From assembly GCA_934098665.1 (NCBI GenBank), contig CAKOOO010000001.1:106752-170751 (forward strand): a DNA stretch of 64,000 nt, in the 5' to 3' direction. Origin of the DNA: an uncultured Bacilli bacterium (GTDB lineage: Bacteria; Bacillota_I; Bacilli_A; RF39; UBA660). Both the position numbers and the translations under genes were made by a program. This document shows, in pieces, positions 1,535-56,935 of this stretch; within the stretch, counting starts at the first letter, position 1, and each line of letters begins with the position of its first letter. A model generated the notes under the pieces. It was not told where the DNA came from. It searched no databases and saw nothing but the letters and a program-made list of their open reading frames with translations.

Positions 1535-4081
1535 TTATTTTAATTCATACCAATTTTTACCGGTATCAGTGCTTACCTTAAGTGGTACAGCAAGTTTAAC
1601 TATATTTTCCATTTCATATTTTGCAAGTTTAATTATTTTATCAAGTTCTTCATTTTTTACATCAAATATAAGCTCATCATGGATTTGTAAAACGAGTTTA
1701 CTTTGTAAATTTTCTTTTTCTAAAATCTCATCTATTTTAATCATTGCCATTTTTATAATGTCTGCGCTAGTTCCTTGAATTGGTGTATTAATAGCCATTC
1801 TTTCACCAGCTTTTCTAACCATAAAATTAGCATCATTTATTTCACTAATTACCCTTTTTCTTCCATAGTTTGTATATACAAAACCATTTTCTTTTGCATA
1901 CTTTATCATACTATCCATATATGTTTTAACCTCAGGATAAAGTTTATAATATTTTTCTATAAACTCATCAGCTTCTTTTTTAGATATATGAAGATTTTCT
2001 CCAAGGCCAAATCCACTTATACCATAAACAATTCCAAATATAACAGCTTTCGCAGAACTTCTTTCTTTTTTTGTAACATCTTTTATATCTTTACCATGTA
2101 TATCGGCAGCTACTTTTGTATGAATATCTCCATTGTGCATAAATGTATCTATCATAGGTTTACAAGAAGCCACAGAGGCTAAAATACGTAGTTCAATTTG
2201 AGAATAATCTAAACTTAAAAAAATGTCATTACTTGGTAAAAATGCTTTTCTAATTTGTTTTCCTTCCTCGGTTTTTACTGGAATATTCTGAAGGTTTGGA
2301 TGAACGGATGAAAGTCTTCCTGTTCTAGCAACAGTTTGTTTAAAAATAGTATGGATTTTATTATCAGTGCTAATATATTCCTTTAGACCATCAATATATG
2401 TTGATTTTAATTTAGCAAGACCGCGATACTCAAGTATTAAACTAATTATTGGATGAACATCAATAAGTTTTTCTAAAGTTGCTTCATCAGTTTTATAACT
2501 TGTTTTATTTTTTTTACCTTTACCAATCATCATTTTTTCAAATAAAATACTACTTAATTGTTTTGGTGATGAAATATTAAAATTTTCACCTGCATATTCA
2601 TATATTTTATTTGTTACTTCATTAAGTCTTATATCAATATTCTCCTTTTCTTTATTAAGTATTTCTTTAGAAACTTTCATCCCATTTTTTTCCATTTTAA
2701 GAAGTACTTTTGATAATGGAAGCTCTATATTATTATAAATATCATTTTGCTTATTTTCCTTAAGTTCAGATAATATATCATTTTCTTTTTCATACATAAA
2801 TTTTACTTTTAATAATTCATTTTGAATAAAATCTTCTTCGCCCATTTTAAGTAAACTACTAAATGAAGCTATTTCATATCCATATTTTATAGATATAAAA
2901 GAAATATCGTCTTTTACATTTAAGCCATTTAAATAACAAACTAATATATAATCAGTTGTAACATCAAGATCTTGATTTAATAAATATGCATCTTTTTTAC
3001 TATCATATGAAATAACTTTTTTATTAGATAAATTTAAATATTTAAGATTATCTTTTGAAAAATAGTAAAAACGCTTTCCATCATAAATTGATGCACATAA
3101 AATATTTGCATTTGGATAATCATCACTATCACACTCTACATATAATGCTACTTTATCATTTGTTATAACATTTATATTTTCATCTGCGTTTATATAAGAT
3201 ATTTTTTCTTTTTCTTTTAAAGTATTTAGTCCATTTAAAAGTGAAGTAAACTCAAGTTCTTTGTAAATATCGAATAAAAGAGGTTCATTAATACCTTCAT
3301 ATTTTAAATCATTTAAAGTAATATCAAGTGGTACATCTTTATATATTGTAGCAAGTTTTTTAGACATAAAGGCATCATCTTTAAAGGTAACAAGTTTATC
3401 ATGAACACTTCCCTTAATTTCATCAATATTATCATAAACGTTTTCAAGTGTAGAGTATTTTTCTAAAAGTTTTAAAGCACCTTTTTCCCCAATACCCTTT
3501 ACACCAGGAATATTATCAGAACTATCTCCCATTAATGATTTTAAATCTATCATATTTATAGGTTTAATTTTATAGTCATTTATAAAAGTTTTTTCATTAT
3601 AACGTATATAACCAGTTTGTTTTAAAAGTTTAACATCTGTTTCAAAATTTATAAGTTGAAGTAAATCTTTATCTGATGAAATGATTGTCGCATCAAAATC
3701 TTTATCTTCTTCACACATTTTAACAAGTGTTCCAATTATATCATCTGCTTCATAAGGCTCAAGTTCTAAATATTTTATGCCCATAGCACTCAGTATTTTT
3801 CTAGCATAAGGCATTTGCATTTTTAGTTCATCTGGTGTATTTTGCCTTCCCTCTTTATAAAAAGAATATTCCTTTTTACGAAAGTTTTTACCTATATCAA
3901 AAGCTACGGCAATATAACTTGGATCTTCCTCTTTAATAATTTTATTTATCATATTTGCAAAAGAAAAAAGTGCATTTGTTGGAAGTCCCTTACTATTTTT
4001 CATATTTGCACCACTATAAAAAGTTGCATAATAACTACGAAACATTAAATTATTTCCATCAATTAAAATTATTTTTTTCAT
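1535..4081 (-). CDS. polA: DNA polymerase I
   Basis: 848 aa. It has a 5'-3' exonuclease N-terminus (LIDGNNLMFRSYYA), polymerase motif A (DYSQIELRILA), motif B (RRSAKAVIFGIVYG) and motif C (QIHDELIFD). Confidence 0.95.
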   Translation of the reverse strand: MKKIILIDGNNLMFRSYYATFYSGANMKNSKGLPTNALFSFANMINKIIKEEDPSYIAVAFDIGKNFRKKEYSFYKEGRQNTPDELKMQMPYARKILSAMGIKYLELEPYEADDIIGTLVKMCEEDKDFDATIISSDKDLLQLINFETDVKLLKQTGYIRYNEKTFINDYKIKPINMIDLKSLMGDSSDNIPGVKGIGEKGALKLLEKYSTLENVYDNIDEIKGSVHDKLVTFKDDAFMSKKLATIYKDVPLDITLNDLKYEGINEPLLFDIYKELEFTSLLNGLNTLKEKEKISYINADENINVITNDKVALYVECDSDDYPNANILCASIYDGKRFYYFSKDNLKYLNLSNKKVISYDSKKDAYLLNQDLDVTTDYILVCYLNGLNVKDDISFISIKYGYEIASFSSLLKMGEEDFIQNELLKVKFMYEKENDILSELKENKQNDIYNNIELPLSKVLLKMEKNGMKVSKEILNKEKENIDIRLNEVTNKIYEYAGENFNISSPKQLSSILFEKMMIGKGKKNKTSYKTDEATLEKLIDVHPIISLILEYRGLAKLKSTYIDGLKEYISTDNKIHTIFKQTVARTGRLSSVHPNLQNIPVKTEEGKQIRKAFLPSNDIFLSLDYSQIELRILASVASCKPMIDTFMHNGDIHTKVAADIHGKDIKDVTKKERSSAKAVIFGIVYGISGFGLGENLHISKKEADEFIEKYYKLYPEVKTYMDSMIKYAKENGFVYTNYGRKRVISEINDANFMVRKAGERMAINTPIQGTSADIIKMAMIKIDEILEKENLQSKLVLQIHDELIFDVKNEELDKIIKLAKYEMENIVKLAVPLKVSTDTGKNWYELK

Positions 4082-4092
4082 AAACTATCCTT

Positions 4093-4605
4093 TCATCTAT
4101 TTAAAGAAGTATCATTTGTAAAATCTTTAGTACTTACATAAATTGGATCTAAAAGTGGATTATATCTATTTTCTTCATGATAACCAAAATTATTTATATA
4201 ACTACTATCTATTATAATCATTAAAGTTGTATCTATAACTTTTCCCTCATTTAATATCCAAGTATGTCTTCCATCAATTGAGTTTACTGTACCTATTAAA
4301 AAGTCCACTGTTCCACCGCATATATATGGGCTATCAAAACTATAACTAACTTGTTTTGCACAAACTGTGCAGTATCCTAAATTAGCGCCATCTTTTAAAA
4401 CCTCTAAAAAAGAGTTTACTCCCCTTGAACGTATATTTTGGCTATCTAATTTATCAAAAAGTTCATCTGAATACCCACTTACTTTACCTAAAGAAATACC
4501 ATCATCAAGTACTTTTTTAAAGGAAGGATTTTCATTATATAATTTTTTTAATAAATCATAACACTTATAATCTTTGTAATTTTCATTTATAACATAATCT
4601 AGCAT
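4093..4605 (-). CDS. hypothetical cytoplasmic protein, possibly a papain-like/C39_2-like cysteine peptidase fold
   Basis: GYCTVCA...GRHTWILNEGKVID resembles the Cys...His arrangement of C39-like peptidase domains. There is no signal peptide. It is the first gene of the island downstream of polA. Confidence 0.35.
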   Translation of the reverse strand: MLDYVINENYKDYKCYDLLKKLYNENPSFKKVLDDGISLGKVSGYSDELFDKLDSQNIRSRGVNSFLEVLKDGANLGYCTVCAKQVSYSFDSPYICGGTVDFLIGTVNSIDGRHTWILNEGKVIDTTLMIIIDSSYINNFGYHEENRYNPLLDPIYVSTKDFTNDTSLNR

Positions 4606-4647: not shown

Positions 4648-5505
4648 TTAATTTAAATTTTTAGTTATTTCAGCAAAAAATTCTTTATTCCATAAATCTA
4701 AACTTTGATTATTTTTAATAAAAGGTATAACATCTTTTTTTGCTTCTTCATAATCTATTTCATTAAATTTTTTTATAAGCATATCCTTTAAAATATTAAT
4801 ATCAAATTGCTCATCTTCCTTAATAAAATTTGATGCTATTAACTTATTTTTTAATAAAGTAATATTAATTTTTACATTATTTGCTAAAAAGAACACATAA
4901 TCGTATAAATCTCTTCCTTTAACCCTAGAGTGGTAATTCCGACATAATATTGCATGCACTTTTCCCGCGAATAAAGATGATGCATCATAAAGATTTACTT
5001 GATGAGGTGAAGGAAGAAGTTTATATTTCATTTCATAGTTTGCCCCAATTGGGGGATTAATATCTACTTCAAATTTTATTTTAATATCTTTTAATAACTT
5101 ATTATACTGATTATCTTCTTTAGGGAAAAAACGTAAGATGTGTTCAAGCGTATTTCCTTTTAAAAAAGCCGATGCAATATTAGACTCAAAATTTTTTTCT
5201 TTTTTAGATATTTTTAAATTAATGCCATATGAATTTAACTCACTTTCAACAAAACTAAAATATTTACTTAAATCAAAATTTTTGTTTGGAGATATTAAAG
5301 CAAAATCTAAATCTTCCGAAAATCTATCTAAATTATAAAATATTCTTAATGCTGTTCCACCATAAAAAGCAGCGTTATTAAAAAAGTCACTTCTTGATAG
5401 TCCACTTAATACAACTTCTTGAATAATTTCTTTTAAAGCATTTATTTCATCGTTTACATTTTTTATTTCATATTTAGAAAGCATTTGATTAATAATATTA
5501 TTCAT
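4648..5505 (-). CDS. AbiEii/AbiGii-family nucleotidyltransferase toxin (type IV toxin-antitoxin)
   Basis: The motif GGTALRIFYNLDRFSEDLDFAL is typical of DUF1814/AbiEii nucleotidyltransferases. It overlaps the upstream gene by 8 nt. Confidence 0.75.
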   Translation of the reverse strand: MNNIINQMLSKYEIKNVNDEINALKEIIQEVVLSGLSRSDFFNNAAFYGGTALRIFYNLDRFSEDLDFALISPNKNFDLSKYFSFVESELNSYGINLKISKKEKNFESNIASAFLKGNTLEHILRFFPKEDNQYNKLLKDIKIKFEVDINPPIGANYEMKYKLLPSPHQVNLYDASSLFAGKVHAILCRNYHSRVKGRDLYDYVFFLANNVKINITLLKNKLIASNFIKEDEQFDINILKDMLIKKFNEIDYEEAKKDVIPFIKNNQSLDLWNKEFFAEITKNLN

Positions 5506-6136
5506 TTATATTCCTCCTTAAAAATTTTTCTAATAGAATTACATTAGTTGAGTGATATAACCTACTTAATTTTTCTATTTTATTATAATCTAATTTGTAA
5601 AATAACTCTTCATCAATTCTTAAATCATTAAATAACATACATTTTAAATTTTCTAAAGTATTTAAAGGCTTCAAAGAATATAACTTATCACATAAAGCTT
5701 TTTCTTTAGAGGCCATTATATAAGAATATTTTCCTTCATTATTTAAAAATATTTCATATGGATATGCAGATGCTGGAACATCTTCATAAGTAAATGTACC
5801 AAAATGATTACGATATATTTTTTTCTTTTTTTTATTAAATGTAGCACATGTTATTGTAGTAACTCTTTCTGGTATTAATCCATAATATGAAAGAGCGTAT
5901 TCAAAAGATATATATGATGGTCCATAAATGCTACTTGCAAGTAAATAACCGGGAGTATTTTTATCTGTTTCATATAGTCCATTAACTATTCTATATAGTT
6001 TTTTATCTCTTATCTCTCTACTTATTTTATTATTTACATTAGAATAATCCCTTAAATTATTCTTTAGCATGCCATTAGTAATTAGCATATTTTCACCTCT
6101 AAATACCATTATACGGTATTTTGTGGAGAAAATCAA
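5498..6136 (-). CDS. AbiEi-family antitoxin/transcriptional regulator
   Basis: 212 aa, located immediately upstream of and overlapping the AbiEii-like gene, which is the canonical antitoxin-then-toxin order. AbiEi_4-like C-terminal domain. Confidence 0.55.
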   Translation of the reverse strand: MIFSTKYRIMVFRGENMLITNGMLKNNLRDYSNVNNKISREIRDKKLYRIVNGLYETDKNTPGYLLASSIYGPSYISFEYALSYYGLIPERVTTITCATFNKKKKKIYRNHFGTFTYEDVPASAYPYEIFLNNEGKYSYIMASKEKALCDKLYSLKPLNTLENLKCMLFNDLRIDEELFYKLDYNKIEKLSRLYHSTNVILLEKFLRRNINE

Positions 6137-6155
6137 GTAATTAATCTTTCATAAA

Positions 6156-6214
6156 TAAAAAAAATCTATTACGCATTTTTCAAATTTTTTTGATTTTGCG
6201 TAATAGAATAAAAT
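6156..6214. repeat. copy 1 of an about 58-bp direct repeat containing a hairpin (CTATTACGCA-N21-TGCGTAATAG)
   Basis: Sequence aaaaaaatctattacgcatttttcaaatttttttgattttgcgtaatagaataaaata. A near-identical copy lies at 8205-8262. This copy acts as the terminator hairpin downstream of the AbiL-like operon. Confidence 0.8.
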
Positions 6215-6218
6215 ACTA

Positions 6219-6830
6219 TTAATTATTTAAATTATTAAATTCATCAATTGCATCTAAAATTTTATATATACTTGTATGTGGATTTGAATTTAATAAATCA
6301 CCATTATTTTTATTAATTTTTTGTTCGAGAGATTTTGCAGTATTTCTTGCATTATTTGTTAAGTCTTTAATAACTTTATACATATCCATACTTTCTTTAT
6401 AAGTACCATTTAAGTTTTGTAATTCTTTTTTTACATCTTTACTAGTTTGAAAGTTTAATCTATTAGTTCGGTAATGCATAACGTACCATATTTCAAAAGT
6501 TGGAGCTGATGATATTATTTCTATATTATTTTCGATACATTTTTGTTTTATTTCTTTTATTTCATTTATTCGACTTTTACTTAAATCTGTATCCAATACT
6601 AGAAATATTTTATAATTTTCTTCAGAAAGAATATCTTCATTATGAATATATTTTAATAAATCATCTAACATACCTTTAGGGTCAGTACTATTTCCTGTAG
6701 AAAACTGGATTCTTAAGTTTCTATTAGCAAAATTTCTAAAGTAATAATATTCCGAAGATTTTTTCCCACCCTCTGATGAAATGACAATTAAGGGTCTTTT
6801 CTTATTATGTTTTATTTGTCTTCTAGCCAT
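6219..6830 (-). CDS. RloB-like protein (AbiLii-like, TOPRIM-type partner of an OLD-like ATPase)
   Basis: The N-terminus MARRQIKHNKKRPLIVISSEGGKKSSEYYYFRNF matches the RloB signature (basic N-terminus, LIVxxEGxxTExxYF). It overlaps the upstream ATPase gene by 19 nt. Confidence 0.6.
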   Translation of the reverse strand: MARRQIKHNKKRPLIVISSEGGKKSSEYYYFRNFANRNLRIQFSTGNSTDPKGMLDDLLKYIHNEDILSEENYKIFLVLDTDLSKSRINEIKEIKQKCIENNIEIISSAPTFEIWYVMHYRTNRLNFQTSKDVKKELQNLNGTYKESMDMYKVIKDLTNNARNTAKSLEQKINKNNGDLLNSNPHTSIYKILDAIDEFNNLNN

Positions 6831-8068
6831 AGGTCAGTATCTTTTATAAATGGAATTGCTCCGTATCTTCCATTTACATATCCTTTTTGAATATTTTCAT
6901 CTTTTCTTACAGAAAATGAATCAAGTGGATATAAATCTGATATTCCATTTTCAGGATTTTTCTCTGTAAACCAAATTTGATCTCTTCTTAACAATTCCAA
7001 ATTTAATAAATTAATAGCATGAGTTGTAAATATTAACTGACTATTAGCCTTATTTATTTCATTATTATTAAATAATTTAACTATAAATTCTACTAAAGCA
7101 GGATGTAAGCTTTTTTCTAATTCATCTACTACAATAACTTTTGACGTTTCAAACGCTTTTTTTAAAAATGGTGCAAATGCAAACAGTACTTTTGTTCCTG
7201 ATGACTCTTCAATAAAATTTAATTTATATGTATGAGTTACATTTTTATCATCTATAACTTCATGTTCCAGTTCTATATTAAAATTTTTAACTTTTAACTT
7301 TCCTTTTTGATTATCTATTTGTAATGCTAATAAATTATCCACTTCTTTTTCTTCATAATCAACATTAATGTCTTTTATTAAAATATCTGCTTCCTTTAAT
7401 AATTTTAATGCAAATTCTTTTAAATTTTCTTCTTTATTACTATAATCCACTAAATCTTTATCAGCAATACTTTCAAAAGAATCATAGGTATCAATTATAT
7501 TAGCAAACCATAAATAAGCATCTTTTGTTTTGGAATAATTCCAAGTTGTAGCTGTAGATAAAAATAATTTATTTTCAGTATTATTTGTTGATAACGACTC
7601 CAATTTATTTTTATCTATATTAAATTCATAATTATTTGTTTTAGTTCTTTTAAAAATATTAGTAGGTTTTTGGCTATAATAAGCATCTAATACTTCGTCA
7701 TAAATTTTATTTGCATCAGCACTAAAAAAATACCTATACTTAATATTATTTGCTATAAATATAAATTCAAACTCACTTGGTTTATTTTTACTAACTTCAT
7801 CAAATAAGAAAGGTTTTATAAAATTCCATTTACCACCCACGGGTATCAAATTTGAATTTCTAACCATTAATATTGCACAAGTTAGAGCTTTTAATATATT
7901 AGATTTTCCTGAAGCGTTTGCGCCATATATTGCAGCACTTTTAAGTAAAGAAATATTTTCATTAGATATTACATTATCTAAATTTTCTTCTCCACTACCC
8001 TTTTCCATAGATAATGTTACTTTATTTTTAAAAGATAAAAAATTTTTTATACTAAATTCTATAAGCAT
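6812..8068 (-). CDS. AAA-family ATPase (AbiLi-like/OLD-like ABC ATPase)
   Basis: The N-terminus MLIEFSIKNFLSFKNKVTLSM is followed by a Walker A (GANASGKSNILKAL). Walker B/D-loop is VVDELEKSLHP. H-loop is FTTHA. This is the typical partner of RloB. Confidence 0.7.
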   Translation of the reverse strand: MLIEFSIKNFLSFKNKVTLSMEKGSGEENLDNVISNENISLLKSAAIYGANASGKSNILKALTCAILMVRNSNLIPVGGKWNFIKPFLFDEVSKNKPSEFEFIFIANNIKYRYFFSADANKIYDEVLDAYYSQKPTNIFKRTKTNNYEFNIDKNKLESLSTNNTENKLFLSTATTWNYSKTKDAYLWFANIIDTYDSFESIADKDLVDYSNKEENLKEFALKLLKEADILIKDINVDYEEKEVDNLLALQIDNQKGKLKVKNFNIELEHEVIDDKNVTHTYKLNFIEESSGTKVLFAFAPFLKKAFETSKVIVVDELEKSLHPALVEFIVKLFNNNEINKANSQLIFTTHAINLLNLELLRRDQIWFTEKNPENGISDLYPLDSFSVRKDENIQKGYVNGRYGAIPFIKDTDLWLEDK

Positions 8069-8204
8069 TTTTATCTCCTCCCATAAATATTATATATTAA
8101 AATTATTAAAAAGTATACTTATTTTTATTATTTTTGTGATTTTTTTACAAATTTATTAGAAATATTTTAATATTTACAATTATTTTTTAAAATTTAAATT
8201 ATTA

Positions 8205-8262
8205 AATAAAAAAATCTATTACGCATTTTTCAATTTTTTTTGATTTTGCGTAATAGAATAAT
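8205..8262. repeat. copy 2 of the about 58-bp hairpin-containing direct repeat
   Basis: Sequence aaaaaaatctattacgcatttttcaattttttttgattttgcgtaatagaataatat. It lies immediately downstream of tsf (minus strand) and looks like the tsf Rho-independent terminator. Confidence 0.8.
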
Positions 8263-8325
8263 ATATTATTTATTATTTTAAAAAATATATATACCCATGT
8301 TTGTTAAAACATGAGTATAAATTAA

Positions 8326-9198
8326 TTATTTAATTTGATTCATTACTTCTTCAGCAAAGTTATCATTTCTTTTTTCTAATCCTTCGCCAACTTCATAACG
8401 AACCATAGAAATGATTTCTCCACCATTATTTTTAACATAATCATTTACAGATATGTCGCCATTTTTAATAAATGGTTGTTCAGCAAGACAAATTTCTTTA
8501 TAATATTTTTTAATTCTTCCTTCTACCATTTTTTCAGCAATATCAGCAGGTTTTCCTTCATTAATTGCTAAATTTCTTTGAACTTCTCTTTCTGCATCTA
8601 AAACATCAGCAGGTACCTGGCTTGTAAAAACATAAAGTGGTTTCATAGCGGCAGACTGCATTGCTACATCTTTTGCTACATCTTCACTTGCACCTTTTAC
8701 TACAGTTAATACTGATATTTTACCACCCATATGGATGTATGCACCAAAATGTTCATCATCATTTTTAGTAATTTTTTCAAATCTTCTTAAAGAAAGTTTT
8801 TCACCAATTTTAGCTGTTTTTGCAACAATTAAATCATTTAATGTTTCACCAGCATATGGTAAGTTTTTTGCTTCCTCTAAAGTAGTAGCATTACCTTCTA
8901 AAATAGTTTTTCCTAAAGCATCAACAAATTCTTTAAATTCATCATTATTACTTACAAAGTCAGTTTCACTATTTACTTCGATAATAACAGCTTTATTACC
9001 ATTTACATAAATATTTGATAAACCTTCAGCAGCAATTCTACCTTCTTTTTTAGCAGATTTTGCAATACCTTTTTCTCTTAAATAATTAATTGCTTTATCT
9101 TTATCACCATCGCACTCAGATAGAGCTTTTTTACAGTCCATCATTCCTGCACCAGTAATTTCTCTTAATTCTTTTACTAAACTAGCAGTAATTTCCAT
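8326..9198 (-). CDS. tsf: elongation factor Ts
   Basis: The N-terminus MEITASLVKELREITGAGMMDCKKAL is the canonical EF-Ts start. 290 aa. Confidence 0.95.
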   Translation of the reverse strand: MEITASLVKELREITGAGMMDCKKALSECDGDKDKAINYLREKGIAKSAKKEGRIAAEGLSNIYVNGNKAVIIEVNSETDFVSNNDEFKEFVDALGKTILEGNATTLEEAKNLPYAGETLNDLIVAKTAKIGEKLSLRRFEKITKNDDEHFGAYIHMGGKISVLTVVKGASEDVAKDVAMQSAAMKPLYVFTSQVPADVLDAEREVQRNLAINEGKPADIAEKMVEGRIKKYYKEICLAEQPFIKNGDISVNDYVKNNGGEIISMVRYEVGEGLEKRNDNFAEEVMNQIK

Positions 9199-9208
9199 TA
9201 TATCCTCC

Positions 9209-10159
9209 TTAGTTTAAAGCATTTATTAATTCTTCTTTTTTCATTGAAGAATAACCTTTAACACCTTTTTCTTTAGCAATTGCTTTTAGTTCTGCAAGTG
9301 TTTTAGAACTTAAATCATCACTTTTTTCTTCTTCGTCTTCAACGATATCATTAATTAGGTAAACATCACTTTCTTTACCTTCTTTAACTTTTTCATCGAT
9401 AACTTCATCTTTAATTAATTCTTCCATTGAAGCATTTTTCTTATTTTTGTCTTCCTCAGTTACATAATCAACTATTTCTAAATTGTTTGCTTCACAAATA
9501 GCGTTTGTAAGTACTCCAAGTAAAACTTTAATACTTCTTACAGCATCATCATTTCCAGGAATAACATAGTCAACTAAATCTGGATCTCCATTAGTGTCAA
9601 CTACACCAAATACTGGAATATGAAGTTTTCTAGCTTCTTTAATTGCATTGTATTCTTTTCTTGGATCTACAATGATTAATGCCTGTGGAAGTTTAGTCAT
9701 TTCTCTAATACCACAAAGAAGTGTATTTAATTTGTCATATTCTTTCTTAATTTTAATAACTTCTTTTTTAGGTAGTGCATCAAATGTTCCATCACTTTCC
9801 ATTTTTTCAATGTCCTCAAGTCTTTTAACTCTTCTTCTAATAGTTCTAAAGTTAGTTAAAGTTCCTCCAAGCCATCTTTCAGTTACATAGTATGAACCAC
9901 TTCTAAGTGCTTCTTCTACAGCAACTTCTCCTGATTGTTTTTTAGTTCCTACAAATAAGAACTTTCCTCCATTACTAGCAATAGTCTTAATTTCTTCATA
10001 AGCCTCCTCTAGTAATTTTTGTGTTTTTTCAAGATCAATAATATAAATATCATCTCTTGAATTAAAAATGTACTCTTTCATTTTAGGATTCCATCTTTTA
10101 GTTTGATGTCCAAAATGAACTCCTGCTTCTAATAAATAACTCATAGAAACAACGGCCAT
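9209..10159 (-). CDS. rpsB: 30S ribosomal protein S2
   Basis: The N-terminus is [19 protein letters not shown]. 316 aa with an acidic C-terminal extension. Confidence 0.95.
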
Positions 10160-10340: not shown

Positions 10341-11411
10341 TTATATTCCTAGTCTATAAGGATTAGTTTTACTTCCTGTTCCTCCAGTTACATACACATT
10401 AGATTTTAGATATAAGACTGGCCTAGCCGCGCGACCATAGGAAGCCGAATTGAAGTACAAATTGCCGACGCTAGTCACGGTAAGAGGAATCGAAGAATTA
10501 TGTGCACTCATAGTCCACTCTAAGCCATTTGAAAATAACCAGTTCTTATTCATATAACTTGCTGGGCTTCCAGCACTTCCTAACACTTCAGTAAATCCTT
10601 CTATTGCGTATCCCCAATCACTTGCATACATCAGTCCTATTTTTGAAGTACTTGTTGTATGAGTTGCTATTTCTTGTGTGTAGTAATTATCTGCTGTTTT
10701 ATATGTACTATCTCCTGCTCCTACATTATAGTATACATCTTCTATCATATTTCCATAATAATCACTTGCATCTATTCCATCTGATGAATAGTTACATAAT
10801 CCTACTGCTGATGTACCTGAATGGCAATAACTATCACAAGATGATGCTTTTCCTAAATAACATGTATTAAGTAAATTTTGAATATTACTTCCCATCCATG
10901 TTGAGTTACTTCCATATTTTATTGCTCCTATAGAATCATTTCTTATTAGTTTTACTCTATTTTGAGTTGTTGCACATCCACTTGTTAAGCATACTGGTAC
11001 GTTACCTATTATTCTCCATAATTCATCATTAAACCATACATAATTATTTGGATCTGTTCCTTGATATCTTTTTCCATGTATTGTAGAAGTACCTTTACTA
11101 TCAACCACATTACTTAAATTACTAGCATTTGAATTAAATGAAATATCACACGTTACTGTTCCCTTTATTTTTGTTATTTCTAGTTTCCATGTTTTAGGGT
11201 TCCATACTCCTTTTCCATGTTCACAATTAACACTTACATTATATTTTCCTTTTGATGGAAAAGATGTTGCATCATTTCCATCTACTTTTAAAGCTATAAT
11301 ACTTCCATTATAATTAAATGTTTTAATGCTTTTACTACTTATAACTATAAGTAAAGTAAAACTTATTATTATAAATATACTACATATTATTATTTTTTTG
11401 TTATATTTCAT
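10341..11411 (-). CDS. secreted surface protein, candidate DGR target (paralog A) with a C-terminal variable region (VR-A about 10425-10497)
   Basis: N-terminal signal anchor. The C-terminal about 250 aa are homologous to those of 13241..14899 (WRIIGNVPVCLTSGCATTQNRVKLIRN etc.). It ends with the VR ...NSASYGRAARPVLYLKSNVYVTGGTGSKTNPYRLGI. VR-A is flanked 3' by the GC-rich motif gcggctaggcc. Confidence 0.6.
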   Translation of the reverse strand: MKYNKKIIICSIFIIISFTLLIVISSKSIKTFNYNGSIIALKVDGNDATSFPSKGKYNVSVNCEHGKGVWNPKTWKLEITKIKGTVTCDISFNSNASNLSNVVDSKGTSTIHGKRYQGTDPNNYVWFNDELWRIIGNVPVCLTSGCATTQNRVKLIRNDSIGAIKYGSNSTWMGSNIQNLLNTCYLGKASSCDSYCHSGTSAVGLCNYSSDGIDASDYYGNMIEDVYYNVGAGDSTYKTADNYYTQEIATHTTSTSKIGLMYASDWGYAIEGFTEVLGSAGSPASYMNKNWLFSNGLEWTMSAHNSSIPLTVTSVGNLYFNSASYGRAARPVLYLKSNVYVTGGTGSKTNPYRLGI

Positions 11412-11661
11412 TTAACATCCTTCTTTCTAATAATTTTATTAATTTATATTTTGTATAATAATATAAATAATTATTTTTTTCATATTCTTTTTTTATTTCT
11501 ATTTCTAAATTATTTAATACAATATAATTTATATTATTTAAATTTTTTATATTCTTATATATTAATTTATCTTCATAAAACGTATAATATTTATTATTTT
11601 TTTTAATTAATATTAAATAATATGGATAAATCATTTTTAATACTTTATATCTTTCTTTCAT
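11401..11661 (-). CDS. hypothetical small protein, very AT-rich and of doubtful reality
   Basis: ORF track only. Composition is Lys/Tyr/Asn-rich and no motif was found. Confidence 0.2.
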   Translation of the reverse strand: MKERYKVLKMIYPYYLILIKKNNKYYTFYEDKLIYKNIKNLNNINYIVLNNLEIEIKKEYEKNNYLYYYTKYKLIKLLERRMLNEI

Positions 11662-11822
11662 ATTTATTTTATCTTTAGCGTCTATAGAAAAAATACGTAT
11701 ATTTTTTCGTCCATCTATTATTTTTTAAAAGTTAAAACTTTTAAGGATAATTAATATTTCTTATGCTAACACTTTGTATAGCCTTAACCATATAAATTTC
11801 AAACATAAGAAGTTGCTAAAAA

Positions 11823-11879
11823 AGCCGCGTTCCCGTTAGAAGCATTGTTGCTATTCACATTAAGAGGGTTCGAAGAAGA
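11823..11879 (-). repeat. DGR template-repeat (TR)-like segment
   Basis: Minus-strand reading is tct tcg AAc cct ctt AAt gtg AAt Agc AAc AAt gct tct AAc ggg AAc gcg gct (S S N P L N V N S N N A S N G N A A). It aligns with VR-B (13325-13397) and VR-A (10425-10497). The clear anchor cases are the TR AAC Asn codons matching TAC in VR-B, in the motif A-S-N-G-N versus A-S-Y-G-Y. It shares the GC-rich gcggct end, then diverges (TR gcggcttttttagc versus VR gcggctaggccagtc), as IMH* versus IMH would. Confidence 0.55.
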
Positions 11880-11910
11880 CTCCTTTTTAAAAATAATTAC
11901 CCTAATATAT

Positions 11911-12408
11911 TTAATAATATCTATTTATAATATGTTTTAATTTATCTTTGTTTACAAAATTATAACTATGTTTATAATTTTGTATTGAATAAAAATATTT
12001 TTTTATATCTATTTTAAGTGCATATATATTATTAATTTTATGTTTTAATTTTTCAATATTATATAGTAATAAATTAATAGCATATGTTAGTCCCATACCT
12101 TTTCTTGTTGCAGTAATTTCTTTACATAAATATTTTGATAATTTTGGGATTAATATATATTTTGCTACATAATGATTTATTACTTTATTAATTATATTTT
12201 CACTCATTACAACTCTTATTTTAGGATCTTTTACTAAAAATATATTATAATTACTTTTAATATATAAATTATTTTCAAGTATATATTTAATATAAATTAA
12301 ATACTCTATTTTATATTTTTCAAATGCAAGAATTTTCTTTCTATTTTTCACTCCTTTCAATATTTCATTATTATATATATCTAATAAATCATTTATTATT
12401 ACTATCAT
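11911..12408 (-). pseudogene. DGR-type reverse transcriptase, N-terminal fragment (finger domain plus motifs 1 and 2) truncated before motif 3
   Basis: 165 aa. It matches the DGR RT N-terminus and motif 1 (FLVKDPKIRVVMSENIINKVINHYV, compare Bordetella bRT FLVYEPKPRLISALEFKDRLVQHAL) and motif 2 (LKIDIKKYFYSI, compare LKSDFSKFFPSI). A stop follows motif 2 by 20 codons and no YxDD lies downstream in any frame. The TR-like segment follows immediately. Confidence 0.6.
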
Positions 12409-12730
12409 GCTCTATCTTATTATCCATCCACTTATTACACATTTTATTTATTTCACTTAACTTATAAGTAACTTTTTTTAAATTACTTTCACTAATATAA
12501 TGTTTAATAAATATTCTTTCTAATATATAATCTATAACACTAATAAATGAATTTATTTCTACTTTATATATAGATATATTTTTATAATTATTTTCATTAT
12601 TAACTTTATTTATAAAATATAATAATTTTATAGATAATTCTTTTAATTTATCTTTATAAAAATAATCTTTTTTAGGTATATTTTCTATTAAATTTATTAT
12701 ACTTTCTAAATTTTTCCATAGAACATTTAT
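12389..12730 (-). other. open frame of 113 codons lacking an ATG/GTG/TTG start; possible Avd-like accessory gene remnant
   Basis: Manual translation of the minus strand from 12730 to 12389 reads INVLWKNLESIINLIENIPKKDYFYKDKLKELSIKLLYFINKV...ILERIFIKHY...KIEHDSNNK with no stop. It is helical, roughly the size of Avd, and lies between the RT fragments. It overlaps the RT N-fragment start by 20 nt in another frame. Confidence 0.2.
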
Positions 12731-12742
12731 TTAATTTATCTA

Positions 12743-13114
12743 TTAAAAAATCCACTTTTTTTTATCTAAATTTTTAAATGACATATCTAAATATTTAGAA
12801 TAAGTATTTATTTTACCAAAGTCTTTTATTAAAGGATCTTTATCTACATCTATAATTTGATAAGATATTTTAGCATCAGATAAAGTATTAATAACTTTAT
12901 TTATTGATGTATCAGGAAAACCTGATACTCCACCTTTCAATACTTTATAACCAAATAAAGTATTCATAATATAAACATCAATATTTTTACATTGATAAAA
13001 TTTGCCATGATTTTTAAAAATTATTAAAAATGATTTATCATCATGTTTTACATCATTAGATGTATAGCACTTTACACTTTTATCTATACATTTTGGTGTA
13101 TCTACCTCCCAGTT
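12743..13114 (-). pseudogene. reverse transcriptase C-terminal fragment (motif 7-like LFGYK plus thumb), located upstream of the N-terminal fragment
   Basis: The ORF-track 74-aa ORF (12743..12967) extends without stops up to 13114: NWEVDTPKCIDKSVKCYTSNDVKHDDKSFLIIFKNHGKFYQCKNIDVYIMNTLFGYKVLKGG.... NTLFGYKVL matches RT motif 7 (FLGYR in bRT). The 67 aa after it match the length of the bRT thumb. HDD may be a degenerate YxDD. Confidence 0.35.
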
Positions 13115-13201
13115 TTACATTATTTTTACTTTTATTAAACATTTTCAAATCTAAAACTTCCTTTCTACTTTACATTGAAAATGTAATATTTACATTTTAT
13201 C

Positions 13202-13240
13202 AAAATCGGCTTCACAAAGCGAAGCACGATTTTTTATTTT
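13202..13240 (-). terminator. terminator hairpin of DGR target paralog B
   Basis: tcggcttcac-aaa-gcgaagcacga, homologous to the hairpin after paralog A. Confidence 0.5.
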
Positions 13241-14899
13241 TTATATTCCTAGTGTATAAGGATCAGTTTTACTTCCAGTACCACCAGTTTTATATACATT
13301 AGATTTTAGATATAAGACTGGCCTAGCCGCGTACCCGTAAGAAGCATTGTGGATGTCCAAATAGCCGTCGTAGTAGACGTTAAGAGGGGATGAAGAATTA
13401 TATGCACTCATTGTCCACTCATATCCATTTGAAAATAACCAGTTCTTATTCATATAACTTTCTGGGTTTCCACTTCTTCCGAGTACTTTAGTAAAACCTT
13501 CTATTGCGTATCCCCAGTCACTTGCATACATTAAGCCTATTTTTGAAGTTGCACTTGCATAACTTGCTATTTCTTTTGTATATTGGTCATCTGCATTTAC
13601 ATATGAAGCGCTTGATGGTACTCCTACATTGTAGTATACATCTTCTATCATATTTCCATAATAATCACTTGCATCTATTCCATCTGAAGAATAGTTGCAT
13701 AATCCTACTGCTGATGTAGAATATGAATAACAATAACTATCACATGAGGATACTTTTCCTAAATAACATGTATTTAGTAAATTTTGAATATTACTTCCTA
13801 TCCATGTAAATGGACTGGATGAGCTAAAGGCAGTTTGATTAAATGCTATTGCACCTATTGAATTGTTTCTTATTAGTTTTACTCTATTTTGAGTTGTTGC
13901 ACATCCACTTGTTAGACATACTGGTACGTTTCCGATTATTCTCCATAATTCATCGTTATACCACACATAGTTATCTGGATCTGTTCCTTGATATCTTATT
14001 CCATGTGTTGTACTTGTCCCTTTTGTATCTACTATAGTAGAAAGTAGCTCACTATTTGAGGGTGTTTTTTGAGTAAATGATATATCACAGTTTACAAAAT
14101 CTGACCAATTAGATATAACTAAACCATTTAATTTATTATCCCATACTGCACTATTTGTTCCACTGCAATTTGTTATACTTTTTGTATATCCTGATAAAAG
14201 GTATGCTGGAGTTGCAACATTTACTGTTACATCTTTTTCTGGTGGAAGAGGATCTCCCATTGTACATTTTGCATTAGTAACTCTATATTTACCTTTAAAA
14301 GTTTTATTTGCTAGTGCTGACTGATCTAAATCTAAATTATAAAATCTATTTGTAAAATTCCATGTTTGTTTTTTATCTTTATTTGAGGAAGAGTTTGCTA
14401 TAACTGCACCACTTACTATAGTTGCAGTTGTAGTGGTTAAATTAAAGTTTTTTTCTTCCACATAATTATTTGTTCCTGTATTTGGACCTTTTGCCTCTAA
14501 AGTAAGTTCTTTTGTTGCTCCACTTGTAACAGGCGTAGGACTTTTTCCATAAATACTTGAATCACTATCATAAGTAAATGTAATATCATATGTACAGCTT
14601 ACTGAATATTCTTCACTACCTGATATTAAAGATACTACTAAAGAAGATGTATTTTCCGCTACATAATTATCTCTATTACTTTGACTCATACCTTTAGGGT
14701 CAATTGTTAAAGCAAAATCAGCATTTGTTACATCTAAAATAGAGTTTGCTAAATTTTTTGCAGCTATATTAACATTTGCTTTATTTGAAATATCCACTAA
14801 AAAATTACCAATATATGCAAATGCCACTGATACTACAAGTACAATTAATACTACAGATATTATAATAGTTTTAATATTTTTCTTATCTAATTTTTTCAT
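13241..14899 (-). CDS. secreted protein, candidate DGR target (paralog B): TasA/camelysin-like N-terminal region with a SipW-type signal, fused to the diversified C-terminal domain (VR-B about 13325-13397)
   Basis: The N-terminus MKKLDKKNIKTIIISVVLIVLVVSVAFAYIGNF resembles the SipW-cognate signal. Residues about 30-230 are homologous to 48674..49351 and 55080..55748. The C-terminal about 250 aa are homologous to paralog A. VR is ...SPLNVYYDGYLDIHNASYGYAARP with Tyr codons where the TR has Asn. Confidence 0.6.
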   Translation of the reverse strand: MKKLDKKNIKTIIISVVLIVLVVSVAFAYIGNFLVDISNKANVNIAAKNLANSILDVTNADFALTIDPKGMSQSNRDNYVAENTSSLVVSLISGSEEYSVSCTYDITFTYDSDSSIYGKSPTPVTSGATKELTLEAKGPNTGTNNYVEEKNFNLTTTTATIVSGAVIANSSSNKDKKQTWNFTNRFYNLDLDQSALANKTFKGKYRVTNAKCTMGDPLPPEKDVTVNVATPAYLLSGYTKSITNCSGTNSAVWDNKLNGLVISNWSDFVNCDISFTQKTPSNSELLSTIVDTKGTSTTHGIRYQGTDPDNYVWYNDELWRIIGNVPVCLTSGCATTQNRVKLIRNNSIGAIAFNQTAFSSSSPFTWIGSNIQNLLNTCYLGKVSSCDSYCYSYSTSAVGLCNYSSDGIDASDYYGNMIEDVYYNVGVPSSASYVNADDQYTKEIASYASATSKIGLMYASDWGYAIEGFTKVLGRSGNPESYMNKNWLFSNGYEWTMSAYNSSSPLNVYYDGYLDIHNASYGYAARPVLYLKSNVYKTGGTGSKTDPYTLGI

Positions 14900-55079: not shown

Positions 55080-55748
55080 CTAATTAGCAACAGTATTACA
55101 TTTAACGTTTTCAACAGCTAAAGTACCTGTGAAACTTTTATTTGCTAAAGCACTTTGATCTTGGCTTGGCATGTTTTTAAATGTAGTAGCTAAAGTATAA
55201 ACAGCTGTAGTAGCGTTAGCTTCAACATCAGCACTGCTTATTGATTCACCAGTAGCAATAGTAACTTTTGCACCAGTTTGTAGTAATTCCATACTCTTAT
55301 CAGCACCAACTACAGTTTCAGTTCTAGTTCCAGGAGTAAATTTACCAGTTACAGCTGCTGGAGCAGTTAAAGTATAAATAAATTCACCTTCTACAACTTT
55401 AGTATAAGCAGGAGTACCAGTATATACTACATCATATGTACATGTAGTTGTAGCTGCTGTAGTACCAGCAGATAAACTAACTGTTAAACTACCATCACCT
55501 TTACCAGCTTCAACAAATTCAGTTCCTTCACCAGCACCCATTTTGTTATCAGGTACAGTATAATTCATATCTTTACCAGTAGTTTTAAATACTACTGATT
55601 GTCCTGAACCTGTAGTAACGTTAACGTTTGATGGTTTAAGATCGTCAGTACTAAATGAACCAAAGTATGCAAATGTTGCTCCTACTACTGCTACAAGTAA
55701 TGTAGCTACTGCGATAACAGTTAACAATAAAGTATTTTTCTTTTCCAT
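55080..55748 (-). CDS. TasA/camelysin-like secreted protein with a SipW-cognate-type signal peptide
   Basis: The signal is MEKKNTLLLTVIAVATLLVAVVGATFAYFGSFS. The C-terminus QDQSALANKSFTGTLAVENVKC matches the paralogs at 48674 and 13241. Confidence 0.6.
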   Translation of the reverse strand: MEKKNTLLLTVIAVATLLVAVVGATFAYFGSFSTDDLKPSNVNVTTGSGQSVVFKTTGKDMNYTVPDNKMGAGEGTEFVEAGKGDGSLTVSLSAGTTAATTTCTYDVVYTGTPAYTKVVEGEFIYTLTAPAAVTGKFTPGTRTETVVGADKSMELLQTGAKVTIATGESISSADVEANATTAVYTLATTFKNMPSQDQSALANKSFTGTLAVENVKCNTVAN

Positions 55749-55840
55749 CTTGTTTTCCTATCTCCTTTCTATTATAAATTTATCACAAATTATAATCATA
55801 AATCAAGTCCTTTTTGTAAGTTTTTAATTTTTTTTAATTT

Positions 55841-56935
55841 TTACTTACTCAAGGTTAAGGTTTTATCAGCATTTAAGGCCACATTTATACCTGTAATATT
55901 TTGGACAGAAATTGAGTCTTGTCCTTGCACAACATAAGATGGTGGTACATTTACACTACTTGTAAGTGCACTATTTGAATATCCAACATAAGATGAATAA
56001 TTTATAATTTTACTAACAGTTGTATAGTTTGTATAAGCACATGCTTGTAAGTATGAACCAGCTGCACATGTAGTGGCACTTCTTGGGCTTACTAAAGATG
56101 TATCCCCATTTTGAACATGAATTGTAGTTTCATAAGTATTACCAGAATAAGTTACAATTAAATTATATGTTCCATTTGGTACACCTAAAAGTGAAAAAGT
56201 TCCATCAGAGGCTGTTGTTACAGTAGATTTATTTTTCATATCATTATTTTGAATAGATATTACTGCCCCACTTACAGCACTAGAACCATTTTTTACAGTT
56301 CCAGATAAATTATATAGTGATTTGGCTATTAAAGGTTCCTGATTAATACTAGCATCTAAATAAATAAGCTTTTCATCAAACTCATCTGGTGTATTTGGAT
56401 TAAGCCATGCTTTTATATAATAAGTTTTACTATCACTACTTGCTGCAAAATTAGCATACGAAAGAAGATAAACATCATTATAATGATCTGATGTATCTAC
56501 TGAAGATAGCGGAAGCTCAGTAATTGAAACAGGCCCTACAATTGGCGTAGTACTACTTTCACTATCAAATACAGCTATTCTAACAAACTCTAAAGGTACT
56601 AAATCTTCTTTAACATTTCCTGATGGAATACTTTTCACAGAATATGAAAAATTTATACTATAAAAAACGGTATATTGATTATTTTTAGAAACAGAAAGTT
56701 TAGCATAAGTAGTCTGATTTATTCCCTCTTCATCTGTCAAAGGAACAATTTCAGCATTAGTTAAAGTAGTGTATGAAACAGTTGCATTTAAATTACCCGT
56801 TTTAATATTTTGATTAACAGTATTCGAAGAAAGTTTAGAAATAAACGCATAACTTGTTCCAAGCGAAACACATGCAAAAGAAATAATTGCAAAAATAGTA
56901 ACAATCATCATACCTTTTCTTTTCATACCCTTCAC
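55841..56935 (-). CDS. secreted protein with a carboxypeptidase-regulatory-like (CarboxypepD_reg) domain
   Basis: The N-terminal signal carries SYAFISK. The C-terminal region SGTVKNGSSAVSGAVISIQNND...ASDGTFSLLGVPNGTYNLIV is CarboxypepD_reg-like. Confidence 0.5.
   Translation of the reverse strand: MKGMKRKGMMIVTIFAIISFACVSLGTSYAFISKLSSNTVNQNIKTGNLNATVSYTTLTNAEIVPLTDEEGINQTTYAKLSVSKNNQYTVFYSINFSYSVKSIPSGNVKEDLVPLEFVRIAVFDSESSTTPIVGPVSITELPLSSVDTSDHYNDVYLLSYANFAASSDSKTYYIKAWLNPNTPDEFDEKLIYLDASINQEPLIAKSLYNLSGTVKNGSSAVSGAVISIQNNDMKNKSTVTTASDGTFSLLGVPNGTYNLIVTYSGNTYETTIHVQNGDTSLVSPRSATTCAAGSYLQACAYTNYTTVSKIINYSSYVGYSNSALTSSVNVPPSYVVQGQDSISVQNITGINVALNADKTLTLSK

Follow-up and report, generated by a model that had tools for sequence, protein, structure and literature searches.

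Defence genes are known to cluster in hotspots. Outside integrons and prophage-like islands, the swapping of single defence modules is mostly unexplained. Integrons separate mostly single-operon cassettes by imperfect palindromes of one orientation (attC sites such as the Vibrio cholerae repeats, VCR), and they are not known in Firmicutes. Repetitive extragenic palindromes (REP), present in hundreds of copies, are a second class of short conserved repeat, and repeat-flanked islands a third, known in two-copy and one-copy forms that differ by the cargo plus one repeat, as in the solo long terminal repeats (LTRs) left behind as scars. Here we describe a locus that resembles each of these in part. 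In a 64-kb stretch of contig CAKOOO010000001.1 from an uncultured Bacilli bacterium (this whole stretch is called the window below), the two-gene defence operon AbiL lies between tsf and a second defence operon, AbiE, and is bracketed by two near-identical copies of a short palindrome. We call this palindrome HP; it marks module borders here and at several other loci.

From the comparisons set out below, we consider it probable (roughly 0.6) that an AbiL block bounded by HP was inserted between tsf, which has its own terminator, and an older AbiE operon, and that the two HPs terminate transcription and enable loss of the block. The features on which this reading leans are listed here; all genes of the locus are on the minus strand.

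8215-8257, minus strand: HP_A, the tsf-proximal copy, 43-nt palindromic core (repeat search, pattern match, fold)
8208-8214, minus strand: T7 tract directly 3' of HP_A (sequence; conserved in all alleles)
6165-6207, minus strand: HP_B, the second copy, beginning 11 nt past the abiLii stop codon (repeat search, pattern match, fold)
6157-6164, minus strand: T8 tract directly 3' of HP_B (sequence)
8201-8290, unstranded: extended direct repeat, copy A (87% identical to 6151-6240)
6151-6240, unstranded: extended direct repeat, copy B, overlapping the final abiLii codons (87% identical to 8201-8290)
8290-8319, minus strand: tsf intrinsic terminator with 13-bp stem, 4-nt loop and T-rich tail (terminator scan; fold -14.4 kcal/mol)
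8326-9198, minus strand: tsf, encoding EF-Ts (gene table, domain search)
8069-8207, minus strand: AbiL leader, homologous to the AbiL leaders of other species from ~8195 downward (alignment)
6812-8068, minus strand: abiLi, AAA_21 ATPase, 418 aa (Pfam, PADLOC)
6219-6830, minus strand: abiLii, RloB-like, 203 aa, native C-terminus ..EFNNLNN* (Pfam, PADLOC, homologues)
8193-8207, unstranded: 15-mer TTTAAATTATTAAAT, start of the AbiL leader (exact repeat)
6226-6240, unstranded: 15-mer TTTAAATTATTAAAT, within the abiLii coding sequence, EFNNLN (exact repeat)

The two window copies share a 43-nt core, TCTATTACGCA followed by 21 A/T bases and TGCGTAATAGA (6165-6207 and 8215-8257), in which a single loop base distinguishes HP_A from HP_B. 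Both match the degenerate pattern TCTATTACGCATTTTTCAA[A/T]TTTTTTTGATTTTGCGTAATAGA with 0 mismatches, 0 matches being expected by chance, and the 64-kb window holds no further copy of the core whether up to 3 mismatches are allowed or the arms alone are specified. In a repeat search the direct repeat extended to 6151-6240 and 8201-8290 (87% identity, spacing 2050 nt). Outside the core, on the flank that faces tsf or abiLii, 19 of 23 bases are identical (P ~1e-4 against AT-rich 23-mers of the window, which has a G+C content of 25%). The initial annotation of this DNA had described near-identical repeats with a 10-bp inverted repeat enclosing just the AbiL genes; indeed, the HPs bracket exactly abiLi and abiLii, and the inverted repeat is there with 10-11 bp.

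The hairpins fold at -15.8 and -16.4 kcal/mol (z-scores -4.7 and -3.5), with an outer stem of 11 bp that includes 3 G-C pairs and an inner stem of 4-5 bp within the 21-nt loop. On the minus strand each is directly followed at its 3' side by T7 (8208-8214) or T8 (6157-6164), and both copies keep this U-tract in every allele compared. Of the earlier proposal that the repeats look like Rho-independent terminators, the stable stem-loop followed by a U-tract therefore stands for both copies; the G+C-rich stem and the short loop of 3-8 nt do not, given three G-C pairs and a loop of 21 nt. A terminator scan reported neither HP, its sole site being the tsf terminator at 8290-8319. A duplicated AT-rich motif beside both copies, also claimed before, is real as a pair of exact 15-mers, TTTAAATTATTAAAT, at 6226-6240 and 8193-8207 (0.09 copies expected). 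The pair is not equivalent in origin: the 15-mers lie on opposite sides of their respective hairpins, both within the cassette, the former being coding sequence of the native AbiLii C-terminus (common to 77/120 homologues) and the latter overlapping the start of the AbiL leader, which foreign cassettes conserve.

Strain contigs were collected by exact-protein look-ups with the window Tsf, AbiLi, AbiEii and p170, a 170-aa protein encoded next to polA, which yielded several dozen independent metagenome contigs. All alleles keep the gene for p170, which borders the variable interval on the right. The window arrangement, HP-AbiL-HP-AbiE, was found in at least 15 contigs with both HPs present, and all four combinations of AbiL and AbiE presence and absence occur among the strains. 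Contig L108 carries HP-AbiL-HP without AbiE, of which the leader, the codons ATG CTA and the last few abiEii codons remain. Contigs L006 and L007, from two samples, have one HP followed by the AbiE deletion scar of the AbiL-positive L108 and the same mutated -10 box. Their single HP matches HP_A in its left flank and HP_B in its right, and these single-HP strains fall inside the single-nucleotide polymorphism diversity of the full-form strains. In L005, two HPs lie 190 nt apart (start to start) and enclose a diverged, decayed AbiL leader and no AbiL genes. No allele has AbiL with only one HP, except the rearranged L107 described below, and small variants of the HP_A and HP_B loops are shuffled among strains.

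The single AbiE scar common to L108, L006 and L007 is most simply explained by a full form that lost AbiE and then lost AbiL between the HPs. On the alleles compared, deletions alone derive every one of them from the full form, and for the single-HP alleles a deletion scar is a better reading than a virgin site. These data support the earlier view that the repeats delimit a unit present in some strains and absent from others, and the tsf-polA interval is a variable site for defence genes, holding AbiL, AbiE and, in one contig, PARIS.

That contig, L107, shares 99.9% identity with the window between a point inside tsf (8861) and 6223, after which HP_B is missing. Where the window has HP_B and AbiE, L107 continues from AbiL into the gene for a 649-aa fused PARIS protein (AriAB, PADLOC 1.9e-67; L107 2763-4712), and the contig then enters a 93%-identical paralogue of window 55678-55849. 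L107 may represent a third cargo type or an assembly chimera, being a single short contig. The AbiLii C-terminus with its 15-mer, exactly where L107 diverges, was considered as a recombination junction and rejected: the window-type C-terminus is native in 77/120 homologues, which makes L107 the rearranged form.

A sister species allowed us to place these events in time. Its RpsB is identical to that of the window, 275/290 Tsf residues are identical and tsf has 91.6% nucleotide identity. Its tsf terminator differs, and 1 base past the T-tract starts the AbiE leader, TACTTGAAATTC...; no HP was found within ~17 kb. One sister contig keeps abiEi (~80% identical), and the others retain only the first ~25 nt of the leader, followed by uvrB. 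As the sister species has AbiE beside tsf and no HP there, AbiE predates the lineage split, HP and AbiL arrived later, and HP is not the ancestral tsf terminator. Judged from this comparison, the AbiE operon is older at tsf than the HP/AbiL block. With Tsf as query, a metagenome scan gave distant genera only (<=73% identity), without HP after tsf and without polA synteny.

The initial annotation took the upstream copy for the natural tsf terminator and proposed insertion at, or duplication of, that terminator, with single-copy strains as the unoccupied site. One copy does follow tsf, both have U-tracts, the single-copy allele it expected in related strains exists (L006, L007), and the repeat is slightly longer than the palindrome, as in a target duplication. 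Yet tsf has a separate canonical terminator at 8290-8319, which begins a few bases past the tsf stop codon and whose stem ends 32 nt before HP_A starts, and the sister-species junction, with no HP after tsf, already contradicts the model. HP moreover recurs at unrelated loci in 15 other metagenome-assembled genomes (MAGs), and the single-HP alleles, sharing the AbiE scar with an AbiL-positive allele, are derived. This makes the tsf-terminator explanation very improbable.

Two further observations concern the sister lineage. In L190-L198, from the sister species, AbiE is decaying beside tsf, with an orphan abiEi in one contig and, in the others, the leader remnant before a convergent uvrB; the tsf-polA adjacency of the window is accordingly lineage-specific. 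The contig L105/L189 is identical to the window over p170-polA and carries 30 differences in tsf, where it is closer to the sister species, a mosaic which suggests recombination between lineages within the locus.

AbiL itself is widespread, with hundreds of AbiLii homologues at ~80% identity. In three sets of loci from other species the AbiL operons lie in other defence islands or in a capsule locus, and HP is absent from all 32 loci fetched by three foreign AbiLii look-ups in different contexts. Related genomes thus carry the same cassette without the flanking repeats, which the initial annotation had named as evidence against its own proposal, and this is the case in other species. The foreign cassettes share a leader from ~-130 and end, past the stop codon, in a terminator of their own (gcaccagtacaaacttg...caagtgttgtattggtg followed by a T-tract), right after which differing cargo starts. 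Homology of the window to these cassettes runs from just past the HP_A T-tract (~8195) to ~6218, a few bases past the stop codon, so that the HPs sit exactly at the limits of the imported block, and HP_B occupies the position of the native terminator of foreign AbiL cassettes.

Two other origins of HP were rejected. HP does not travel with AbiL, as the 32 foreign loci lack HP and have their own terminator. Nor is HP_B part of AbiE, be it an operator for AbiEi or the 5' end of a cassette carrying AbiE, as the sister AbiE leader is the same and has no HP. In L181-L188 and L122-L129 the cargo beside AbiL switches right after the T-tract of the AbiL terminator, downstream between AAA_15 and DUF8370/8371; the upstream neighbours are an integrase, RecG, GmrSD or OLD. 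Terminator hairpins therefore mark module borders there too.

Beyond the window, HP is a 41-bp palindrome consisting of CTATTACGCA, 21 A/T bases and TGCGTAATAG. Both window copies fit the family definition, which takes these arms or a compensated variant with an A/T spacer of 20-22 nt. A census that used one strict pattern and one genome per species, and therefore undercounts, gave 16 HP loci in the 15 other MAGs, with unrelated flanks and none beside tsf. These MAGs are labelled uncultured Bacilli or Tenericutes, along with a few Muribaculaceae that are probably mis-binned. In total, 41 distinct copies were collected from other loci, with 40-42 nt between arm ends, almost invariant arms and, in all 41, a spacer of 21 +/- 1 nt that is A/T-rich and contains a TCAA...TTGA inner repeat. 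As a control, 856 kb of distant loci gave one fuzzy match. Copy number is low throughout (2 in 64 kb, 1-2 strict matches per representative genome, 3 in one array by relaxed match), and HP often lies 0-32 nt after the terminator of a resident gene. Nothing corresponding was found in Rfam, plasmid and phage collections gave no match, and literature searches by sequence and keyword returned nothing relevant. By these comparisons HP is a previously undescribed low-copy palindrome family of uncultured, very AT-rich gut Bacilli.

Some individual matches deserve comment. L009, L016 and L018 are AT-rich, Bacilli-like HP contigs filed under Muribaculaceae, L016 with a G+C-rich stretch abutting HP, and are likely mis-binned or chimeric. 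A match on a viral contig, L024, was rejected as HP, being an unrelated tandem CTATTACGCA repeat. In L019 an Rpn-like PD-(D/E)XK 'transposase' gene (1566-2543) is followed by HP 9-10 nt further on, and in L022 (3096-3362), L023 (38-280) and L020 (1220-1438) only an 80-88-aa C-terminal open reading frame (ORF) of the Rpn-like gene stands with HP. These ORFs are reminiscent of the small intragenic Rpn antitoxins. A link between HP and this gene of the kind seen with REP-associated tyrosine transposases (RAYT) was rejected, as the four species represent a single orthologous locus.

HP is dispersed and extragenic, its sequence is conserved while its flanks are unrelated, and it is missing from the orthologous site in the sister species; such a palindrome could be a selfish element of the REP type or of the miniature inverted-repeat transposable element (MITE) type, with two independent intergenic insertions unrelated to the cassette. 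We hold this to be highly improbable, and less credible than any other reading considered here. Copy number is very low (at most 3 per locus even with relaxed matching), no target-site duplications accompany HP, and the window copies are significantly similar beyond the palindrome. AbiL never occurs with just one HP, the rearranged L107 excepted, no transposase of the Y1 (RAYT) type was seen in the fetched loci, and the Rpn-like PD-(D/E)XK gene stands beside HP at one orthologous locus only.

HP pairs also enclose other cargo. Between an HD-domain gene and spoIVA, contigs L138, L139 and L142 have the order term1-HP-ATPase-HP-350-aa and 270-aa genes-HP-term1; the L139 array thus consists of three HPs and two cassettes. 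At the same HD/spoIVA site of another species, L013 has HP-membrane-protein gene-HP, and its first HP matches HP1 of L139 on the left side and HP2 of L139 on the right. Judged by these flanks, L139 and L013 differ at the ATPase by the cargo and one HP, just as alleles with and without AbiL do at the window locus. The ATPase gene of L157-162 lies after a diversity-generating retroelement and is flanked by a direct repeat of ~90 nt, which is composed of the reverse transcriptase gene terminator, a 17-nt linker, HP and 4 nt. Many spoIVA contigs end at HP or term1, and contigs that end there or are barely longer than the ATPase gene fit repeats at cassette ends. Across the loci compared, HP bounds cassettes, mostly of known or candidate defence genes, that differ between strains and species. 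The initial annotation had allowed for a genome-wide repeat without association to variable cargo; HP is dispersed, yet it sits at cassette boundaries.

The ATPase is a recurrent neighbour. Five genes adjoining the original HP matches encode AAA_14+DUF4143 ATPases, which match the PADLOC candidate PDC-S01 at 4e-145, and three further homologues were looked up independently of HP. All 7 distinct ATPase loci examined, those of the three independent homologues included, have HP or a variant 15-34 nt before the start codon, and 3 have it on both sides of the gene. The repeat is not tied to the tsf site and belongs to a dispersed family at unrelated loci that is linked to PDC-S01 ATPase genes. At these loci the HP spacer contains TTGAAA or TTGATT (-35), with an extended -10 box 17 nt further on. 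The 10-21-10 layout recurs with compensated arms, CTATTTCCCA/TGGGAAATAG, in an ATPase lineage of 69% identity, where the gene is also followed by a second copy. In the arm alignment, 3 stem positions are changed on both sides, and the covariation score exceeds that of all 500 shuffles. Many ATPase contigs measure just 1.3-2 kb, barely exceeding the gene, suggesting that each end holds a repeat. DUF4143 is classed in the PD-(D/E)XK nuclease superfamily (PMC3424549). The ATPase has no sequence homologue in the PDB, and its structural model (predicted local distance difference test score, pLDDT, 70) weakly resembles AAA+ proteins of the Orc1/Cdc6/archaeal-ATPase type, those of the Orc1/Cdc6 type being DNA-binding (Foldseek template-modelling score, TM, <=0.36).

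These associations raise the possibility that HP is a dedicated recombination or recognition site for a protein, the candidate being the PDC-S01 ATPase with its AAA+ and PD-(D/E)XK-type DUF4143 domains, that segments between HPs are mobilised as cassettes, and that AbiL hitch-hikes, moved in trans, loosely as in integrons or solo LTRs. The constant placement upstream of the ATPase start, the copies on either side of the gene at 3 loci, the compensated arms, the covariation and the fixed spacer all point in this direction. So do the indels of cargo plus one HP at two independent loci, the frequent position just past resident terminators, the short ATPase contigs, the superfamily of DUF4143 and the Orc1/Cdc6-type likeness suggested by the model. 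We nevertheless regard a protein site as rather unlikely. The 64-kb window contains no ATPase homologue, leaving its HPs without a PDC-S01 linkage within that stretch, and no known recombinase or transposase domain is involved; the model similarity is low at TM <=0.36 and pLDDT 70. The repeats extend past HP into host sequence, by ~23 nt in the window and by 45 nt including the host terminator in L160. Finally, HP overlaps the ATPase promoter, with the -35 in the spacer and the -10 just 3', and autoregulation alone could explain the arm covariation.

A bolder proposal, in which the PDC-S01 AAA+/PD-(D/E)XK ATPase has HP as its cognate DNA site and the two form a new cassette system in Firmicutes-type bacteria, appears doubtful and a little less likely again. 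In such a system the ATPase would bind or nick the palindrome that flanks its own gene and covaries with it, and any segment between two HPs, here AbiL, could be excised, lost, captured or exchanged immediately past host terminators.

The promoter overlap can also be taken as the whole explanation. HP would then be purely regulatory, a promoter-operator palindrome of the ATPase gene re-used as a terminator, with no role in rearrangement, and the flanking of AbiL would be a by-product of stitching. The spacer hexamer with its extended -10 box, the covarying arms at fixed spacing, the U-tracts of both window copies, and G-U pairing on the sense strand that is kept in 4/5 single-arm transitions away from the outermost pairs all suit an operator or a transcribed hairpin. 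What makes this improbable is that no usable -10 box follows the window HPs, where AbiL and AbiE have their own promoters, that HP also occurs past the ends of ATPase genes and, in L022 and L023, between genes in convergent orientation, and that it coincides with indel borders at at least 3 loci.

We therefore return to the preferred reading, an HP-bounded AbiL block between tsf and the older AbiE operon. Each window HP, with its U-tract 3' on the coding strand, would act as an intrinsic terminator or insulator, HP_B replacing the native terminator of AbiL. Recombination of HP_A with HP_B would remove AbiL and leave a single HP with the A left flank and the B right flank, direct repeats of 41-76 bp making AbiL a unit of loss. 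The HP-AbiL-HP block would have arrived whole, or have inserted into an earlier cassette already bounded by HP, and not via duplication of the resident tsf terminator; the locus as a whole would be exchanged between strains via ordinary homologous recombination in the flanking core genes tsf and polA. The window copies probably do act as terminators, and the single-HP alleles probably arose by recombination between the copies. Repeats that extend beyond HP, in the window and in L160, together with the shuffled loop variants favour homology-driven events or gene conversion over a clean site-specific crossover.

Several points weigh against this reading. Most HPs outside the tsf locus have no U-tract, which indicates that the family is not primarily a terminator, and intrinsic terminators do not usually have so few G-C pairs (3) in the stem or so long a loop (21 nt). 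The reading offers no route for an HP-bounded block into an HP-less site. L005 fits neither a simple HP x HP event nor a simple internal deletion, and the 3' part of its spacer matches neither allele. The tsf 3' flank of the sister species, including the terminator, is wholly different, so that the comparison is not one with a clean empty site, and the direction of loss versus gain rests on parsimony and one sister lineage. Finally, all data come from metagenome assemblies, which are prone to break or mis-join at repeats, and L005, L107 and L108 are single contigs.

The remaining genes of the locus are the following.

9209-10159, minus strand: rpsB (gene table)
6108-6136, minus strand: AbiE promoter-like site TTGATT-17-TATAAT, whose leader comes straight after the tsf terminator of the sister species (scan, sister-species comparison)
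5498-6088, minus strand: abiEi, 196 aa from ATG (PADLOC)
4648-5505, minus strand: abiEii, nucleotidyltransferase toxin (Pfam, PADLOC)
4093-4605, minus strand: 170-aa gene (p170), no family assigned, conserved right border of the variable interval (Pfam, PADLOC, NCBIfam)
1535-4081, minus strand: polA (gene table)

AbiLi was assigned by PADLOC (E 7.5e-95) and Pfam (AAA_21) and AbiLii by PADLOC (1.3e-13) and Pfam (RloB, 3e-23); their ORFs overlap by 19 nt and qualify as an AbiL operon. AbiEi, the antitoxin/regulator (PADLOC 4.9e-64), and AbiEii, the nucleotidyltransferase (PADLOC 2e-103), likewise qualify as an AbiE operon. The p170 gene at 4093-4605 gave no match in Pfam, PADLOC or NCBIfam. An inverted repeat, ATACC-N7-GGTAT at ~6105-6123, covers the AbiE -10 box and is conserved in the sister species; it is likely the operator for AbiEi autoregulation. 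Further upstream, two minus-strand surface-protein-like genes, of 356 aa (10341-11411) and 552 aa (13241-14899), have near-identical C-terminal ~250 aa and enclose ORFs of 86, 165 (11911-12408) and 74 aa. The 165-aa ORF is reverse-transcriptase-like by reading of the sequence and has no NCBIfam match, and window 10341-14899 looks like a decayed diversity-generating retroelement. In other species (L157-162), an intact element of this kind (bAvd, RVT_1) lies directly upstream of HP-ATPase-HP.

HP provides a sequence handle for locating variable cassettes in genomes of uncultured gut Bacilli. The borders it marks lie between tsf and polA, between the HD-domain gene and spoIVA, after a diversity-generating retroelement and beside a topoisomerase resembling those of conjugative elements. 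Its tie to the ATPase genes gives a testable idea of what PDC-S01 proteins recognise, and as HP breaks short-read assemblies, the defence content of HP-bearing MAGs is probably under-called. Should the ATPase/HP cassette system be true, it would be a functional analogue of integron cassettes or of REP doublets mobilised by RAYT (REPIN-RAYT) with unrelated machinery, and a candidate defence gene would gain a second or alternative role as a cassette mobiliser.

Among known systems, DNA-level sites and signals match HP in part. Like the window HPs, intrinsic terminators consist of a hairpin followed by T7-8 on the coding strand, and HP_B stands where the native AbiL terminator would be; unlike them, HP has a 21-nt loop and 3 G-C pairs, recurs at unrelated loci mostly without a U-tract and is sometimes part of a promoter. 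Operators of the CIRCE type (controlling inverted repeat of chaperone expression) also have conserved arms at fixed spacing on a promoter and could act on DNA and RNA. HP differs in that it has no known regulator, that many of its copies do not precede a gene, and that it is found at rearrangement borders. Xer/dif-type sites, as in dif modules and integrative mobile elements exploiting Xer (IMEX), require two arms of roughly 11 bp around a centre of 6-8 bp, against a spacer of 21 +/- 1 nt in HP. The arms could pass as the inverted repeats of a MITE, and a target-site duplication is absent at ~20 independent HP copies.

REP elements, bacterial interspersed mosaic elements (BIME) and REPIN-RAYT share with HP a short extragenic palindrome that is conserved across loci and species and often placed just past gene ends, a possible function as terminator or RNA-stabilising hairpin, and a possible role as rearrangement substrate. 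They differ from HP by hundreds of copies against its handful per genome, and HP has a fixed-length 21-nt A/T spacer. The consistent partner of HP is an AAA+/DUF4143 ATPase gene whose promoter it overlaps, and no RAYT gene (IS200/IS605-like Y1) was seen in any fetched HP locus.

At the level of the locus, the interval from tsf to p170/polA resembles a defence-island hotspot, a fixed site with differing combinations of AbiL, AbiE and PARIS within one species. In contrast to such hotspots, the borders of one module are formed by a specific palindrome family and not by tRNA genes, integrases or prophage ends. Repeat-flanked islands and solo-LTR scars correspond to HP in that outer flanks are kept while cargo plus one repeat is lost or gained; the HP repeats are just 41-90 bp, and no known integrase or reverse transcription makes them.

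The comparison with integrons goes furthest. Like attC/VCR sites, HPs are same-orientation imperfect palindromes between mostly single-operon cassettes that can form multi-cassette arrays (L139), and both kinds of cassette are rich in defence or toxin-antitoxin genes and vary in content between close relatives. Unlike attC, HP has no RYYYAAC/GTTRRRY core sites, and its 10-11 bp stem is too short for R and L boxes. No integron integrase (PF00589/tyrosine recombinase) was found in gene tables covering +/-10 kb around the tsf locus, nor in the 3-8 kb flanks fetched for the HP arrays L138-L180. HP-bounded cassettes moreover carry their own promoters, and HP repeats sometimes extend into host sequence. 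The HP arrangement works like a small integron/VCR cassette array combined with a repeat-flanked island that decays to a solo repeat.

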